A stretch of 64,000 nt of DNA, taken from Minisyncoccota bacterium. GTDB lineage: Bacteria; Patescibacteriota; Minisyncoccia; Phycocordibacterales; Phycocordibacteraceae. The stretch covers positions 85,864 through 149,863 of the forward strand of contig DASPLK010000002.1 of NCBI GenBank assembly GCA_035627595.1. The letters are read 5' to 3'. Positions within the stretch are counted from its first letter, which is position 1. Each line of letters starts with the position of its first letter. Shown piece after piece: positions 9,394 to 37,971 of this stretch. The position numbers and the translations under genes are program-made. The notes under the pieces are model-generated. The model was not told where the DNA came from. It saw only the letters and a list, made by a program, of their open reading frames with translations, and searched no databases.

Positions 9394-10959
9394 ATGTTTT
9401 GGGCAGACCGAATCGCAAAGGAAATACAAAAGGAGAAAGGTGGCCTTAGTCGCCCGCTTATCATTCGCGACGAAAAGACCCTTTCCGGACGCGTACATGT
9501 GGGAAGCATGCGGGGACTCGCCATTCATGCGCTAGTCGCTGAGGTTTTGGACGAGTATGGGATCAAGAACACCTTCCTCTGGGAACATAATGATTTCGAT
9601 CCATTCGATTCCATACCGCCGCAGCTAGACGAGTCGGTGTACCGAGAGCATCTCGGAAAACCTTTGTATCTCGTCCCGTCGCCGGAGCCTGGCTATGACA
9701 ACTATGCGGAGTTTTATGGCGCTGAGTTCGAAGGTGTACACCGTAAGTTCGGTGCGACGCCCTCCTACTACCGTGCATACCGCGACCTATACGGTGCAGG
9801 GAAGATGGACGCACAGATCAGAACCGCACTTGATCGAGTTTCTGATATACGCCGCATCCTTAAGGAAGTTTCAGGATCGGTGAAGGATGAGAGCTGGCTT
9901 CCCGTATCGGTTGTATGTGAGAAGTGTAAGAAGATGATGACCACTCGCGCGTACGACTGGGATGGTGAGACCGTGGCGTATACCTGTGAGCGCACTCCTG
10001 ACGAATGCGTGCCATGCGGACATGAGGGACGAGTCGCTCCTTTCTCAGGCGCCGCGAAGCTCTTCTGGAAGGTTGAGTGGGCCGCAAAGTGGGTCGCAAT
10101 GGGTGTCGATGTCGAGGGCGGTGGCAAAGACCATTCCACAAAGGGCGGCGCGCGCGACGTTGCGAATCATATTGCGCGGGAAGTGTTCGGCATAGATTCG
10201 CCGTTTGATATTCCATACGAGTTCTTCCTCGTCGGCGGAAAGAAGATGTCTTCATCAAAAGGTAGGGGTTCTTCAGCAAAGGACATGTCTGAGCTCTTTA
10301 CGCCTGAGCTGTTCAGGCTGCTCCTGATCGGTAAGGAGCCTATGCAGCAGATTGATGTGGATCCAGAAGGTGACTCCGTGCCGCGCATGTACGACTGGTA
10401 TGACGATCTTGCGCAGATGGTCAGGGAGGGCATTGCCGACGATTTCACCCGCCTCTACGCACTAGCTCAGTTGCCTGAGGATCAGGCAGAGATATCAGCG
10501 CCATGGCAGCTTCGCTTCAGCCAGCTTTCTTTTATCGTACAGATGCCGCATATGGATCTCATTACCGAGGCTGCGCGGATAAAGGGCGCCGTTCTTACGC
10601 AGGAAGAGGAAACGAAGCTCAGTGAGCGGGCAGGATACGCACGTTTCTGGCTTGAGATGTACGCGCCTGAATCTGCGCGCTATGTACTCCAGGAGGTAGT
10701 GCCCACCGTCTCATTTTCCGAAGCGCAGAAGGCCGCATTCAAAGCCCTTATGACTTTTGTCGATGAGGAGCGTACGGGAGAGGAGGTGCATGCATTCCTG
10801 CACGCGCTTAAGACCGATATCCCGATTTCCCCGAAGGAGCTCTTCTCCGGAATCTACGAACTTTTCTTAGGTCGTACATCTGGTCCTAAAGCAGGTTGGT
10901 TCCTCTCGGTCTTGCCGCGAGACTATGTCCTCAATCGCCTAAAGAAGGGAAGCGCATAA
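9394..10959 (+). CDS. lysK: class I lysyl-tRNA synthetase
   Basis: FWADRIA...SGRVHVGSMRG (HIGH-like) and KMSSSKG (KMSKS) are typical of class I LysRS. Confidence 0.8.
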   Translation: MFWADRIAKEIQKEKGGLSRPLIIRDEKTLSGRVHVGSMRGLAIHALVAEVLDEYGIKNTFLWEHNDFDPFDSIPPQLDESVYREHLGKPLYLVPSPEPGYDNYAEFYGAEFEGVHRKFGATPSYYRAYRDLYGAGKMDAQIRTALDRVSDIRRILKEVSGSVKDESWLPVSVVCEKCKKMMTTRAYDWDGETVAYTCERTPDECVPCGHEGRVAPFSGAAKLFWKVEWAAKWVAMGVDVEGGGKDHSTKGGARDVANHIAREVFGIDSPFDIPYEFFLVGGKKMSSSKGRGSSAKDMSELFTPELFRLLLIGKEPMQQIDVDPEGDSVPRMYDWYDDLAQMVREGIADDFTRLYALAQLPEDQAEISAPWQLRFSQLSFIVQMPHMDLITEAARIKGAVLTQEEETKLSERAGYARFWLEMYAPESARYVLQEVVPTVSFSEAQKAAFKALMTFVDEERTGEEVHAFLHALKTDIPISPKELFSGIYELFLGRTSGPKAGWFLSVLPRDYVLNRLKKGSA

Positions 10960-10965
10960 GAAGAA

Positions 10966-10993
10966 CGGCCCCAGAAGGGGCCGTTTGAGTTTG
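10966..10993 (+). terminator. rho-independent terminator after lysK
   Basis: CGGCCCC-agaa-GGGGCCG followed by TTTGAGTTTG. Confidence 0.6.
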
Positions 10994-11004
10994 CAGATGA
11001 TTTT

Positions 11005-11265
11005 TTAGTAGAGTTCACGGTCGGTGGCGTGGTAGTAGTCGCGGGTCTGGCGTCCAAGACTTTCGTTGTATTGGTCGTCAGTCCCGCGCGTAAGGAACGG
11101 AGCCCGGTGCGTGATGCCGTGATCCTTGCATGCGCTGGTGTCGATTTCCTCCGTGCAATAGGGGCGGGGGATCGGCGGCAGCGCCTGGACGGGGGTGTTC
11201 TGGATGGAATCTCCCGGTTCGACTCCACGCATCCATGCAGGAACAGTATTGCTGGTCTCAGTCAT
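11005..11265 (-). CDS. hypothetical small protein (86 aa)
   Basis: ATG preceded by GGAGAATAGCG (Shine-Dalgarno spacing fits); no family recognised. Confidence 0.35.
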   Translation of the reverse strand: MTETSNTVPAWMRGVEPGDSIQNTPVQALPPIPRPYCTEEIDTSACKDHGITHRAPFLTRGTDDQYNESLGRQTRDYYHATDRELY

Positions 11266-11317
11266 CGCTATTCTCCAAGGTGCATGTGGTTCATTGTGTA
11301 CCGTTTCGTTCTAAAAC

Positions 11318-11348
11318 GGCGAGAGCCCGATCCTTTCGGTCGGGCTCT
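11318..11348. other. perfect 11-bp stem hairpin GAGAGCCCGAC/GTCGGGCTCTC in the mraZ upstream region
   Basis: Inverted repeat seen directly. On the minus strand it follows a possible 32-codon hydrophobic ORF (about 11377-11470). Confidence 0.4.
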
Positions 11349-11614
11349 CGCTTCATTTCTCCTTCTCGTCTTACTTCGTGGAGGAAACCTCAAGCGAAAC
11401 CCCGACCGGTTTAATTAGGCCGAAGTACACAAAGGTTGCGAAGACGAATGTATTTATTGCACTCTTCATTACTTCTTAGGATAGGCTTCTTCATCTTATG
11501 TGTCAACGTTCATGGGGATAACAGAATGAGGAGTGGGAGAAAGTGTCATATACTGGCATACATGTGGGAGAAAGTGGGATGAGATTCCACCACCTCCTGC
11601 GCCTACTTCCTACT

Positions 11615-12049
11615 ATGTTCATCGGAGAATACCGCCACACATTCGATACGAAGAACAGAATTTCGCTACCAGCGAAATTCAGGAAGGAACTTGGCGCATC
11701 TGTGGTTGTTACGCGCGGTCTTGATAAGTGTCTCTTCGTATACGCAAAGAGTGCGTGGAAGAAGGAAGCTGAGAAGATTGCTCGCCACTCAACGGGAAGC
11801 GCAGCAGGCCGCGGCCTTTCACGACTTATGCTTGCTGGCGCGGTAGAAGCTGATGTTGATTCAGCAGGCCGCATCCTCGTGCCTGACTACTTGCGTTCGT
11901 TTGCGAGTCTTTCTGATAAGGGTGTTATTGCTGGGGTTTCAGATCGTGTCGAGATTTGGGACGAGAACGCATGGGAGGCGTACACGAAGACCATTGAGTC
12001 TGAAGCTGATGCTTTTGCTGAGAAGCTCGGCGACCAGGGAGTCCTATAA
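11615..12049 (+). CDS. mraZ: transcriptional regulator MraZ
   Basis: MFIGEYRHTFDTKNRISLPAKFR... duplicated MraZ fold; first gene of the division/cell-wall cluster. Confidence 0.85.
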   Translation: MFIGEYRHTFDTKNRISLPAKFRKELGASVVVTRGLDKCLFVYAKSAWKKEAEKIARHSTGSAAGRGLSRLMLAGAVEADVDSAGRILVPDYLRSFASLSDKGVIAGVSDRVEIWDENAWEAYTKTIESEADAFAEKLGDQGVL

Positions 12050-34275: not shown

Positions 34276-35075
34276 ATACCACACAGGGGCCGATCCCAGC
34301 AGACGCATCTACCGTTCCAAGCGTCGAACCATTGCGCGAGCTTCCGGAAGTTCCTGAAAAGCACCATGCCATGAGCCAGGTGCTTCAACAGGCGATTGCA
34401 GAAGGGAAACATGAGGTGCCGGAAAGTCCTGCGCCTTTGGTTTGCAAACCTCGCGAGCTTGAGAGCTGGAGGGTATTTAAGATCATGTCAGAGTTCGTTG
34501 AAGGGTTCGACCTTATTAAGAAGTATGGTCTCGCTGCGTCCATTTTTGGTACTGCGCGCCAGAGCTTTGATGATCAGGTATATAAGGATGCGGAGGAGCT
34601 TGCGGGACGTCTTGCAAAGCACGGTTTTGCAATCATTACAGGCGGCTCTGCTGGCATCATGGAAGCGGCTAACAAGGGGGCGTATGAAGCAGGTGGCGCA
34701 TCCATCGGCCTCAACATCGAGCTTCCTATGGAGCAGCACACTAACCACTACACGACCGAAGCAATGAGCTTTGACCACTTCTTCGTAAGGAAGGTCATGC
34801 TCACATTCGCGTCCGAGGTCTACATTTATTTCCCGGGAGGCTTCGGCACCTTGGATGAGTTCACAGAGATAGCGACTCTTGTTCAGACCAGGAAAATCCG
34901 CAAGGTACCGATCGTTCTCTACGGCAAGGAGTACTGGGAGCCATTCACGAAGATCTTCGAAGAGCGGCTCCTTAAGGAATACAACGCAATCGATGCGGCT
35001 GACCTTGATCTCTACAGAGTCGTCGATTCAGTGGACGAGGCGTTCGAGTACATTGTTGCCAACGTCAGGTGCTAG
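34260..35075 (+). CDS. LOG family protein (TIGR00730 Rossmann fold; cytokinin riboside 5'-monophosphate phosphoribohydrolase-like)
   Basis: GGSAGIMEAANKGA...PGGFGTLDEFTE is the LOG family signature. Confidence 0.8.
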   Translation: MADKLDTTQGPIPADASTVPSVEPLRELPEVPEKHHAMSQVLQQAIAEGKHEVPESPAPLVCKPRELESWRVFKIMSEFVEGFDLIKKYGLAASIFGTARQSFDDQVYKDAEELAGRLAKHGFAIITGGSAGIMEAANKGAYEAGGASIGLNIELPMEQHTNHYTTEAMSFDHFFVRKVMLTFASEVYIYFPGGFGTLDEFTEIATLVQTRKIRKVPIVLYGKEYWEPFTKIFEERLLKEYNAIDAADLDLYRVVDSVDEAFEYIVANVRC

Positions 35076-35100
35076 AGTCACCAAGAAAGCAAAGAAGAAT

Positions 35101-35135
35101 GGGCTGCCCGTACGGGCAGCCCATCTGCATTCATT
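35101..35135 (+). terminator. terminator after the LOG gene
   Basis: GGGCTGCCCG-ta-CGGGCAGCCC followed by ATCTGCATTCATTG. Confidence 0.6.
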
Positions 35136-35607
35136 GTAACGATCCTGCCGCAGGTATCGCATTCGAATCCCTGCTTCGTAGGTCGCATATCCGCTCCGCA
35201 TCGACAGCGATTGGCTGCCGCACGAAGCCAGTGAAAATGTAATCCGTGCATGGGTACAACTCCTCCTTTGACTTGCCCAAAGCCACAGTAATAGGAGTAC
35301 GTTCAAGACACAAGTTTCAGAACTCGATGGATTGAAAGAGTAGGGGAGTCGCCTTTCCCAATCCTCTAGATCAATCAGCATAAAGCACCTCCCCTGGCTC
35401 CCCCGCCACCTCTTGGGGGAAGGGGTAACTCCGCTTCCCAGCCTATACATCTTGCTGCGAAACTTCCTCGCAATCGAGCATGTCAATAATATTTTCAGAG
35501 AACGGTCGGGAAGAGAAGTGCACCTGCTAAACGATAGGAGAATAGAGTCGTATACAGCCCCAGCTTCTCTAGGTATTGTTCGCACAATATATCTTTTGCG
35601 AAATCCC

Positions 35608-35698
35608 ATAAAACCCAGTAAATAGGCTGTGGATTTGGGTCTGCTTTCCTTAAGCATGTCCTATTCCCCATTATACGGCCTATTTACTGGGTTTTGAT
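35608..35698. repeat. perfect ~20-bp inverted repeat (ATAAAACCCAGTAAATAGGC) with a 50-nt spacer
   Basis: Arms read directly from the sequence; located in a 770-bp low-GC noncoding stretch. Confidence 0.55.
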
Positions 35699-35700
35699 GA

Positions 35701-35724
35701 ACTGTCAACGCCACTGTCAACGCT
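35701..35724 (+). repeat. tandem 12-nt direct repeat ACTGTCAACGCC/ACTGTCAACGCT
   Basis: Two adjacent copies immediately 3' of the inverted repeat. Confidence 0.5.
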
Positions 35725-35843
35725 TACTTTCCCGAAATTTTGCCGGAAAAGTAGGCACTTCCCCCAACTATCAAAAATAATTAGGGAGTGGGCCGTTTTT
35801 AAGGCTTCTCGTGTGACCGAGATTTGTGCAGGAGCATATCTAT

Positions 35844-36386
35844 CTAGCCGAAATTAGCATTTAAGATCCAGCCGATTAACGCTCCAATAGGGAGCGTGGC
35901 TAGTATGGTCAATACTACTTTTACTAGACTTGGATACTTACTTAGAACTGTCTCAGTAAAGGACATTGGTTCTAAGAAGTCGTAGCCCGGCTCCCCTATC
36001 TCAAACTTACCCAGATAGCGTGGGCTCGGAACAAGGTACTTTTCCTCGATACAGTAGTTAATGAGTCTGTCTATTTGGTCCATCCGCTGCTTCGCTCGGG
36101 CAAAAGATGGTGACGACACATCCAGCTCGTCCGAGGTTGTTCTTGGATCAGGAATACGTAGAACTCTTCTAACTGTATCTCTGTAATTCTCGAGATACAT
36201 GTTCTCAAGCAGGATAGCTTGGATTCCAATAATGTTCGCACTGTTTCCTACCCATGCCCAATCTGGAACGCTATTTCGCCTAGACTTGTCTAGAATCTTT
36301 AATAGTTTCTGTGCGCGGAACTGCTTGTACATCAGGCTAATACTATCAGCTATCGCGACCCAGTATGGGTAATTTTGGTACAACAT
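35844..36386 (-). CDS. hypothetical protein with C-terminal TM helix (low GC, foreign-looking)
   Basis: 180 aa; AT-rich codon usage unlike neighbouring genes; C-terminal VVLTILATLPIGALIGWIL. Confidence 0.5.
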   Translation of the reverse strand: MLYQNYPYWVAIADSISLMYKQFRAQKLLKILDKSRRNSVPDWAWVGNSANIIGIQAILLENMYLENYRDTVRRVLRIPDPRTTSDELDVSSPSFARAKQRMDQIDRLINYCIEEKYLVPSPRYLGKFEIGEPGYDFLEPMSFTETVLSKYPSLVKVVLTILATLPIGALIGWILNANFG

Positions 36387-36392
36387 TAATGC

Positions 36393-36532
36393 TACTTGCC
36401 GTGGGTTACCTCCCGGTCTTTCAGAGATTCGCTCAGCTCACTTAAGTGACTTGAGACAAGCCGACTCAGCTCAATCAGTTCCTCCAATTCCTTCTTAATC
36501 TGATTTGCGTTCGTGATGCTACCATTCTTCAT
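36393..36532 (-). CDS. possible 46-aa coiled-coil peptide directly upstream of the 180-aa gene (coordinates approximate)
   Basis: MKNGSITNANQIKKELEELIELSRLVSSHLSELSESLKDREVTHGK; stop is 6 nt before the next ATG. No Shine-Dalgarno. Weak. Confidence 0.2.
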
Positions 36533-36569
36533 GGAGTGTAATTTTTACTAGTTACTAATCACTTCGCGC

Positions 36570-36752
36570 ATGACGATATGGCAAATCTCACCTCAGCACT
36601 TTGATACCGAGGAAGGTAGGATGAAGATCATTGAGACGATCGACACAATCCGTGGCCTACAAGGCCACATTGAGACTAAGCTACAAGCACTTCAGGATCG
36701 TGTGTACGATGATCAAGACCTACCAAGTCCTGGTATAGAGAATCCTCAATAA
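36570..36752 (+). CDS. hypothetical small protein (60 aa)
   Basis: Divergent from the minus-strand pair; followed by a strong hairpin. Confidence 0.35.
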   Translation: MTIWQISPQHFDTEEGRMKIIETIDTIRGLQGHIETKLQALQDRVYDDQDLPSPGIENPQ

Positions 36753-36770
36753 CTCTAAGAGAGGTTGAGT

Positions 36771-36812
36771 AACGAAATACGAGTTACCGAAACCGGCAAC
36801 TCGTATTTCGTT
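36771..36812 (+). terminator. 15-bp perfect-stem hairpin AACGAAATACGAGTT/AACTCGTATTTCGTT
   Basis: Seen directly, 19 nt after the stop of ORF 36570-36752. Confidence 0.55.
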
Positions 36813-37000
36813 GTCAGTTGAATCTACCTATATCTTTTGCGATAAACAATATAAAAGCTGCCGAATATATCTCTCTTCAGGCGCTGCAAGTTACAGCCCC
36901 TTCCCTCGCTGTATGGCGGCCCACCGAAGCCATTTCTTGCGTATCCGAGATTCACATTGGAGATATTATTTTTGTTCTATCAGCCAATAAATAGTAAGTA

Positions 37001-37515: not shown

Positions 37516-37971
37516 CTACTTCTTCTTTACTACCTTTGTAGCTTTCTTTACAGGAGCCTCAGCAGCCTCTACAGGTAGGTGCTTGCGTACCTCTGCAGAA
37601 AACTCGGTAGATCGGTTAAGAGACTCAACGGCAACGGCAAGTCGCTCCAAAGTCTCATTCATAACCTTAATCTGCTTGCTTAGATCCTGAACCTGACCGT
37701 CGATGGCTGGTGCTGGTGTTGAGTGTGTAGGACGAGGTGAGAACTTCCTGTCGTCAGAGCCATAGCGAGAAGGCGCACGCTTCTCATCCTTAACAAAACA
37801 GTCAGCGCAATGCACTGGCTTCTTGCCGTTAGGGCGAAACGGAACCTGGCACCGCTTATGACAGTTCGCGCACTCAGCGTCATAGAGTTCTTTTTTGAAT
37901 GCCTGACCGCCTCCAGAGGGAGTGTGCTTTTTGAAGCTTCCGGTGCGAGCAAATTTCTTGTATTCAGCCAT
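37516..37971 (-). CDS. zinc-ribbon protein (CxxC-x17-CxxC) with Lys-rich C-terminal tail
   Basis: ECANCHKRCQVPFRPNGKKPVHCADCF; tail KKATKVVKKK. Confidence 0.55.
   Translation of the reverse strand: MAEYKKFARTGSFKKHTPSGGGQAFKKELYDAECANCHKRCQVPFRPNGKKPVHCADCFVKDEKRAPSRYGSDDRKFSPRPTHSTPAPAIDGQVQDLSKQIKVMNETLERLAVAVESLNRSTEFSAEVRKHLPVEAAEAPVKKATKVVKKK

Follow-up and report, generated by a model that had tools for sequence, protein, structure and literature searches.

An AT-rich islet with an orphan membrane-protein gene at the putative dif site of a Candidatus Paceibacterota chromosome

Introduction

What is a cluster of three short open reading frames (ORFs) doing in an otherwise ordinary bacterial chromosome? 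The question is raised by positions 35844 to 36752 of a 64-kb stretch of contig DASPLK010000002.1 (the whole stretch is called the window below), where ORFs of 180, 46 and 60 amino acids (aa) lie close together. The original prediction proposed that this cluster might be a small toxin/antitoxin or abortive-infection-like module, or debris of a phage or plasmid. The window itself is an ordinary chromosomal region of Candidatus Paceibacterota, bacteria of the Candidate Phyla Radiation (CPR), and encodes MreB, MraW, TruB, a class I aminoacyl-tRNA synthetase, a P-type ATPase and two tRNAs.

The answer that emerges is that the ORF cluster would be the cargo of an AT-rich islet of about 1.1 to 1.24 kb that adjoins dif, the site at which Xer-type tyrosine recombinases resolve chromosome dimers. 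This DNA is probably foreign rather than ancestral. With some reserve, we lean toward reading it as a miniature or decayed islet that resembles the integrative mobile elements exploiting Xer (IMEX) and that may have been inserted at dif by Xer capture.

The dif-like site

To the left of the cluster lies the sequence TGTTCGCACAA-TATATC-TTTTGCGAAAT (35574..35601, plus strand), hereafter site 1, in which two 11-bp imperfect inverted arms flank a 6-bp center. The reverse complement of the left-arm sequence TTCGCACAA, which is TTGTGCGAA, matches the right-arm sequence TTTTGCGAA at 8 of 9 positions, and the entire site agrees with E. coli dif at 20 of 28 positions. Known dif sites span about 28 bp and have two 11-bp imperfect inverted arms with a central region of 6 to 8 bp (PMC5357621).

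The number of copies of this motif was determined in the 64-kb window and in related loci, the latter being a species-level sample of 80 (L003-L082) fetched via the LOG-family gene that lies upstream. The 20-nt core of site 1 occurs once in the window, where 0.01 copies are expected by chance. Downstream of the LOG gene, TCGCACAATATATCTTTTGCGA (35580-35601) is nearly invariant, and the core is present once per locus, with no more than three mismatches, in 67 of the 80 related loci.

The DNA that surrounds the motif is strongly polarized. An unbiased search for strand-polarized words within 8 kb on either side of the motif in 68 loci revealed AGGGAAG, which is directed toward the motif 446 times and away from it 37 times, along with GAAGGGAA (121 toward, 3 away), GGGAAGGG (107 toward, 7 away) and GGGCAGGG (75 toward, 4 away). 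In the relatives, AGGGAAG is found 260 times on the plus strand and 22 times on the minus strand to the left of the motif, and 18 and 201 times, respectively, to its right; the corresponding counts for GGGNAGGG are 178, 8, 10 and 91. Within the window, the motif separates the copies of AGGGAAG by strand: the 11 plus-strand copies are all to its left, and the 16 minus-strand copies are all to its right. The consensus GGGNAGGG of the FtsK orienting polar sequences (KOPS) points toward dif (PMC5357621), and the polar words found here read as variants of it. The strand bias of ORFs likewise switches at the motif, to the right of which 87% of ORF length is on the minus strand, and the GC skew at the motif lends weak support to a terminus.

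The motif is also used as a border by mobile DNA. Its exact 20-mer core is present in four IMG/VR contigs (L083 3340-3359; L084 274-293, minus strand; L085 9088-9107; L086 238-257, minus strand), two of which are inovirus-like, with Zot (PF05707, E = 1.8e-6), small coat-like proteins and the motif at the edge of the prophage. Another is a tailed phage in which the motif is close to the contig end, and in L083 about 460 bp separate the motif from a tyrosine recombinase gene (PF00589, E = 1.3e-22). Inoviruses are classic users of the host Xer system for integration at dif (PMC5357621, PMC4246890). We regard site 1 with high confidence as the chromosomal dif and a putative Xer site, and the ORF cluster lies at the replication terminus of the chromosome. 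No description of dif for Patescibacteria or CPR bacteria was found in the searchable literature.

Two further features of these regions were recorded. The inovirus-like prophages also encode a putative adsorption protein of 509 to 512 aa. In 18 loci (L010, L021, L047, L049, L061, L062, L065, L067, L068, L071, L073, L075-L079, L082 and L086), the right arm of dif, ATCTTTT[G/A/C]CG, is followed 18 to 72 nt to its right by an inverted copy of the arm. The variable base and its counterpart in the copy can always pair, as G:C in 9 cases, A:T in 4, C:G in 2 and G:T in 3. In many of these loci a second hairpin comes next, in which the left arm is copied as ATTGTGCG / CGCACAAT. The inverted arm copies could form a hairpin that overlaps dif, or could be an inverted pseudo-dif reminiscent of the folded attP of CTX-phi.

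A partial copy of dif and the borders of the islet

On the far side of the ORF cluster lies a partial duplicate of dif, site 2, with the sequence TTGAATCTACC-TATATC-TTTTGCGATAA (36818..36845, plus strand). Compared with site 1, only 2 of 11 left-arm positions match, the center is identical and 9 of 11 right-arm positions match, and the right arm keeps the 8 positions that are conserved in relatives. A repeat search shows that the two sites share the exact 14-mer TATATCTTTTGCGA, whose two same-strand copies, at 35588 and 36829, are spaced 1241 bp from each other and thereby bracket the ORFs. The shared block starts exactly at the boundary between arm and center. When the surrounding 6 kb were shuffled, any 14-mer of site 1 was found in 2 of 3000 shuffles.

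The DNA between the two sites has no counterpart in any of the 80 relatives. Synteny with these loci (p137, RNase T, LOG) is kept up to 35075 and is wholly lost past this point, and homology with relatives resumes directly past site 2, at a conserved chromosomal element termed B (36850..36952, minus strand; core ATGGCTTCGGTGGGCC ... GAGGGAAGGGG). GC content, which is 0.52-0.56 in the neighborhood, drops to 0.43-0.46 in the stretch from about 35400 to 37000, with the islet itself at 0.43-0.45. The sole ORFs of the interval 35602-36842 are those of the cluster, in their longer or shorter forms (180/162 aa, 46 aa and 60/43 aa), and no integrase or recombinase is among them.

Each site has a stable hairpin just inside it. 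Hairpin I1 (35607..35697), which is long and imperfect, starts 5 nt inside site 1 and has 30-nt arms that are 83% complementary; its DNA fold of -24.4 kcal/mol (z = -7.5) was equaled by none of 200 shuffles. Hairpin I2 (36766..36816) is strong and ends 2 nt before site 2. Its stem (36771-36812) comprises 15 perfect pairs, one mismatch and 3 further pairs, with a DNA fold of -18.7 kcal/mol (z = -7.4), and the 15-bp perfect stem reported after the 60-aa ORF in the original prediction is therefore real. I2 has no T-tract on either strand and was not called in a terminator scan.

If the islet was acquired by Xer capture, then a small circular element, or a larger one that has since decayed, would have borne a mimic of dif and would have been integrated by the Xer machinery of the host, as is the case for IMEX elements. 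The outcome would be an intact dif on one side and, on the other, a one-armed direct copy that retains the center and one arm. Because a one-armed site would recombine poorly, the DNA of the islet would stay fixed. The sole convincing cargo gene would be that of the 162-aa membrane protein described below, whose family appears to travel with genes of mobile elements.

Several additional details of the borders deserve mention. Directly after I1, the repeat search found two tandem copies of ACTGTCAACGC with a period of 12 (35701..35723, plus strand), arranged as ACTGTCAACGC(C)ACTGTCAACGC and followed by the near-palindrome ACTTTCCCGAAATTTTGCCGGAAAAGT. This repeat could be an iteron-like protein-binding site or the terminator region of the membrane-protein gene. 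Element B gave local alignment scores of 47, 46, 37, 35, 35 and 32 to L023, L024, L017, L032, L013 and L010, respectively, against a shuffle null of 24 +/- 2, and in all six loci it is located 230 to 290 nt to the right of dif. A part of about 70 nt (36881-36952, minus strand; core CCGAGATATGGCTTCGGTGGGC ... GAGGGAAGGG) corresponds to L023 3858-3931, L024 12081-12119 and L017 9628-9665. Possibly, element B is a tiny ORF that begins MA(S/W)VG....

In one related locus, a stretch on the opposite side of dif may represent another islet associated with this site. In L024, 2.1 kb (9727-11825) lie between a pseudo-site of the left-arm type (TTTCGCACAAAATATC) and dif, with a GC content of 0.47 versus 0.53-0.55 in the flanks. 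This stretch encodes an orphan 162-aa protein with a weak match to LPD3 (E = 0.0013).

The large ORF encodes a tail-anchored membrane protein

All three predicted ORFs, of 180, 46 and 60 aa, are present in the ORF list, and of these only the largest (35844..36386, minus strand) appears to be a genuine gene. When scored with a codon model built from 31 long ORFs of the host, each of the three does best in its own frame, at 0.15 to 0.23 bits per codon versus 0.52 +/- 0.07 (minimum 0.36) for host genes. GC content at third codon positions is 0.49 for the 180-aa ORF, 0.44 for the 60-aa ORF and 0.62 for the 46-aa ORF, with host genes at 0.61. The description of the 180-aa ORF as strongly AT-biased applies only in relative terms, at 44.6% GC versus 54.4% for host genes. 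The single C-terminal transmembrane helix that had been proposed is borne out: the Kyte-Doolittle mean over 19 residues reaches 2.33 at residues 157-175, and all three distant homologs described next likewise have a C-terminal hydrophobic helix.

When 1.84 billion representative proteins were searched exhaustively with HMMER, the only matches other than the large ORF were P0002 (166 aa, E = 3.8e-6) and P0003 (159 aa, E = 4.9e-4), and a profile search added P0004 (E = 1.8e-12), whose full ORF has 178 aa. The resulting family has four members, all of which come from Patescibacteria or groundwater-type assemblies, with a conserved core formed by E66, R69, T71, A98, D106, I113, Y117, G134, F137, P140, F143, L148 and Y151. 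The large ORF is thus a real gene that belongs to a tiny, CPR-restricted family.

The product is likely to be shorter than the ORF. NCBI annotates a 162-aa protein that starts at ATG 36332, and the N-termini of the homologs align at this same codon. In addition, an extended -10-like box, TGATAGTAT (36340..36348, minus strand), matches the host pattern TGnTAnnnT, ends 7 nt before ATG 36332, and precedes this ATG alone, not ATG 36386. Given these three lines of evidence, ATG 36332 is probably the true start of a 162-aa protein with its own leaderless-type promoter, and ATG 36386 probably is not a start. Among 42 host gene starts, 12 have a TGnTAnnnT box that ends 6 to 12 nt before them, versus a background of 0.7%, and Shine-Dalgarno sequences are rare in the genome (2 of 30 genes), which together suggest that leaderless mRNAs are widespread in this organism. 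These features are seen upstream of many genes, for example 9394, 37449, 43144, 45720, 57823 and 62245.

Efforts to assign a family or fold to the protein gave little. As the original prediction had it, there is no recognizable motif: scans of all three ORFs with Pfam, PHROGs and PADLOC gave no match at E <= 1. Pfam scans of each family member returned only noise, the best match being RQC at E = 0.02, and a sequence profile search of the PDB with the family found nothing below E = 0.6. AlphaFold2 modeling on the 4-sequence alignment was too poor for use (mean predicted local distance difference test score, pLDDT, 56; predicted template modeling score, pTM, 0.45), and a Foldseek search of the PDB with the model of the large ORF gave no match below E = 6. 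There is a hint of a winged-helix-like cytoplasmic domain in the helix / short-strand / helix pattern around 'IDxIINYCIxxKYL ... GxxFLxP' and in weak matches of the RQC / PCI type (E = 0.02-0.6), which we do not count as evidence.

The homologs occupy contexts that resemble those of mobile elements. The gene for P0004 is divergent from a gene for an excisionase-type helix-turn-helix protein (phrog_66, E = 1.5e-9), and within a few kb of the gene for P0002 lie genes of the collagen-repeat, tail-fibre-like type and one for a serine recombinase. The check for the same genes in phage or plasmid contigs that the original prediction had recommended was negative: tblastn of the ORFs found no match in the phage and plasmid collections. 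There was also no tblastn match to the four dif-bearing viral contigs, and none in a scan of viral contigs with the family profile. Our guess is that the protein has an accessory or exclusion-type membrane function for the element and a cytoplasmic helical, possibly winged-helix-like, domain.

The small ORFs

The two remaining ORFs are of doubtful coding status. The 46-aa ORF (36392..36532, minus strand; NCBI VEA92_01485) has no homolog among 5.8 billion clusters. The 60-aa ORF (36570..36752, plus strand) has an alternative 43-aa form that starts at ATG 36621 and is predicted by other gene callers; this ATG, inside the longer ORF, is preceded by GAGGAAGG, the sole Shine-Dalgarno-like sequence of the cluster. 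The exact 60-aa product was not found in a collection of 15 billion proteins, in which the 43-aa form and the 46-aa ORF are singleton clusters, and tblastn with the 60-aa ORF gave no match in any fetched locus. No host-type promoter was found for either small ORF, and the 46-aa ORF also has no Shine-Dalgarno sequence. The 46-aa and 60/43-aa ORFs appear to be specific to this lineage and possibly go unexpressed. Between the divergent ORFs, the 37-nt spacer does contain the predicted direct repeat, which can be read from the sequence as TTACTAGTTACTAA (36545..36558, plus strand).

These results bear directly on the idea that the 46-codon ORF is cotranslated with the large ORF. The distance between its stop codon and ATG 36386, given as 6 nt, is actually 5 nt. 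More importantly, ATG 36386 is probably the wrong start, which undercuts translational coupling: measured from the probable start at 36332, the distance is 59 nt, with a promoter-like box in between. Whether the small ORFs are conserved had been named beforehand as a test of the proposed module, and they are not. Three loci that encode homologs of the large ORF (L001, L002 and L087) have no similar small ORF in the upstream or divergent position.

Competing explanations

A number of observations weigh against the insertion of the islet by Xer capture. Over its first 60 to 220 nt, the DNA to the right of site 1 weakly resembles the post-dif DNA of relatives (mean similarity z of about 3.7). CTTCCC boxes, which are reverse KOPS-like, stand at +62 and +157 from site 1 and at about +57 and about +161 in relatives, and a hairpin like the left part of element B stands at +205 (35806-35824), with B starting at +210 in L023. 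Element B is itself inverted in the window relative to the relatives, so that one or more additional rearrangements have to be assumed. Near the dif of relatives, half-site copies number 20 versus a shuffled expectation of 10, which is about twofold, and several of them lie inside conserved genes. Metagenome scans for an empty site, with the lineage-specific left flank and dif as the query, and for a second copy of the islet, with the I2 hairpin as the query, each produced 0 matches, and no circular junction was found. Neither a Xer nor an FtsK gene was found in the window, and genes for Rep, Zot, coat, transfer or Xer-activation proteins are absent from the islet. Because these functions of an extrachromosomal stage are lacking, the islet, if it is an IMEX, would be a remnant or a non-autonomous element. 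The post-dif-like flank, the inverted element B, the missing empty site, circle and second copy, and the weak half-site enrichment are the reasons why our confidence in Xer capture stays modest. Given the resemblance beside site 1, the start of the foreign DNA may lie near 35825 instead of at the dif core, which a simple one-step Xer integration would not predict. Alternatively, the element may carry the post-dif region of its donor, as is expected if it was born by Xer excision from another genome. Many of the same points would fit ordinary plasticity of the terminus, in which a lineage-specific orphan gene resides in a hypervariable region by dif as a result of illegitimate or homologous recombination. 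The 14-nt repeat would then be a by-product, for example of the duplication of part of dif during the rearrangement that inverted B, and not of an Xer crossover. Synteny to the right of dif is absent in all 80 relatives, beyond the islet too. The inversion of B, together with a second direct repeat that also brackets the ORFs (35806-35824 and 36934-36952, 15 of 19 positions identical), points to a complex history, and the resemblance of the right flank of site 1 to post-dif DNA and the failure to find a second copy or an empty site are likewise in keeping with plasticity. This explanation does not account well for a duplicate that starts exactly at the boundary between arm and center and keeps the full center plus the conserved part of one arm, nor for the return of relatives' homology right at site 2, the foreign composition of the islet, and the fact that the same motif borders integrated inovirus-like elements in the clade. 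We consider terminus plasticity possible, if rather unlikely.

The remaining explanations fare worse. Toxin-antitoxin and abortive-infection modules are common cargo of mobile DNA, and the layout seen here, with small close genes, a short hydrophilic ORF upstream of a membrane-protein gene, and a divergent ORF across a repeat-bearing spacer, could suggest that the 46-aa ORF and the membrane protein form such a two-gene module with the 60-aa ORF as a regulator. We judge this improbable, given that none of the three ORFs matches PADLOC, Pfam or PHROGs, that the 46-aa and 43/60-aa ORFs are without any homolog, that the three homologous loci have no equivalent partner ORFs, and that the likely start at 36332, with its own promoter-like box, is 59 nt from the 46-aa ORF. 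The proposal of a toxin/antitoxin or abortive-infection module thus finds neither homology nor conserved pairing behind it, and the argument from coupling fails. The other proposal, phage or plasmid debris, has fared better and is broadly supported by foreign DNA that is absent from the 80 loci and lies between dif and a partial copy, and by homologs in mobile-like contexts. It is very improbable that the motif belongs to a structured element of RNA or DNA instead of being dif, with the ORF cluster merely adjacent. The inverted right-arm copies in 18 loci, with their always pairable variable base, and the long conserved non-coding region around the motif speak for such an element, but a hairpin overlapping dif is compatible with dif function, the 20-nt core is near-invariant and shows no covariation, no Rfam family accounts for the motif in the window or in eight relatives, KOPS-like polarity and the strand of genes switch exactly at the motif, and prophages abut it. 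A version of this idea, in which the motif and the G-rich/C-rich boxes would form a large structured RNA with a closing helix, was dropped because the boxes are strand-polarized over +/-8 kb and KOPS-like. Similarly remote is the prospect that the islet is a still-active, non-autonomous miniature IMEX, or satellite, whose tail-anchored protein or mini-ORF controls Xer at dif in the manner of XafT of TLC-phi, or blocks superinfecting inoviruses that integrate at dif.

Relation to known systems

The islet was compared with IMEX elements such as LME-1 of Legionella, TLC-phi, VGJ-phi and CTX-phi of Vibrio, and the gonococcal genetic island. Like these, it is located at a chromosomal dif, lacks an integrase and has a GC content below that of the host. 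It also lies between an intact dif and a direct, partly degenerate copy, with the reservation that the DNA adjacent to site 1 weakly resembles the post-dif DNA of relatives. In the attP of TLC-phi and in difGGI, the center and one arm are kept and the other arm is divergent (PMC5357621), which is the pattern seen in site 2. LME-1 has an intact dif upstream and a modified dif downstream, and the modification stabilizes the insertion (PMC9765430); the islet has the same arrangement of an intact upstream and a modified downstream site. In contrast to known IMEX elements, which range from 5 to 57 kb, the islet is only about 1.2 kb, has no genes for replication, morphogenesis or Xer activation, and has yielded no excised form or second copy. 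Its left boundary is ambiguous, it is flanked by an inverted element B, and it resides in a CPR bacterium.

There are also parallels with the dif modules of Acinetobacter, which are flanked by full sites in opposite orientation. These pdif modules have 1 to 5 kb of cargo, often one or two genes including toxin-antitoxin pairs, with Xer-type borders and no recombinase of their own, and are moved by the host XerC/D (PMC7399989, PMC12907356). The islet is likewise a small cargo bounded by Xer-type sites without a recombinase. Unlike the Acinetobacter modules, which are mostly plasmid-borne, it is chromosomal and lies at the true dif, and its sites are direct, with one of them one-armed.

Site 1 resembles the dif/KOPS arrangement of the E. 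coli XerCD-dif-FtsK system and of the single-recombinase variants XerS, XerH and XerL in that G-rich octamers like GGGNAGGG invert strand at a 28-bp site whose 6-bp center is flanked by 11-bp imperfect inverted arms. It differs in its clade-specific arms, TTCGCACAA and TTTTGCGAA. The likeness to type II toxin-antitoxin or abortive-infection modules is confined to a superficial layout of small adjacent genes on mobile DNA, whereas homology and conserved pairing are absent and coupling rests on a doubtful start.

Significance

Taken alone, the ORF trio is of minor importance, since two of its members are doubtful mini-ORFs and the third is an orphan membrane-protein gene that defines a rare family restricted to CPR bacteria. 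The islet would be a very small, probably defunct Xer-associated insertion at dif, which is a kind already known. The by-products of this analysis, namely a consensus for dif and a KOPS-like word across a wide range of Paceibacterota, and inovirus-like prophages at that dif, are probably worth more. The motif TTCGCACAA-TATATC-TTTTGCGAA, together with the strand switch of AGGGAAG / GGGNAGGG, can serve as a terminus marker for these Paceibacterota, organisms with tiny genomes, no cultures and an obscure cell-cycle biology. Their dif appears to be a hot spot for insertions that include inovirus-like prophages and at least one tiny orphan islet. This sequence handle might be used to locate termini in CPR metagenome-assembled genomes, to check assemblies, and to find integrated mobile elements and their cargo. 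Should the islet prove to be an active satellite, it would be the smallest known element that exploits Xer and would offer a first functional look at dif, Xer and KOPS in the Candidate Phyla Radiation.

Neighboring features of the window

Rfam scans of the window, of the local region at a permissive threshold and of eight relatives detected only the two tRNAs, elsewhere in the window. Past element B, a gene at 37516-37971 (minus strand) has a product of 151 aa that combines a treble-clef zinc finger (PF23477, E = 1.3e-13) with a tail rich in lysine. Neither this protein nor a neighboring 133-aa membrane protein has a counterpart among the 80 related loci, and the latter, when compared with a 134-aa neighbor of P0002, proved to be unrelated. 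On the other side, the 768 nt that follow the LOG-family gene (35076-35843) contain no frame with a coding signal under the codon model, and a 209-aa ORF that reaches into them (35028-35657, minus strand) was rejected as spurious. This interval does carry motifs that are colinear with those of relatives, including TAGGGGAGTCG at 35341 and GGGGAAGGGGT at 35416, and most of these are KOPS-like words crowded around dif.

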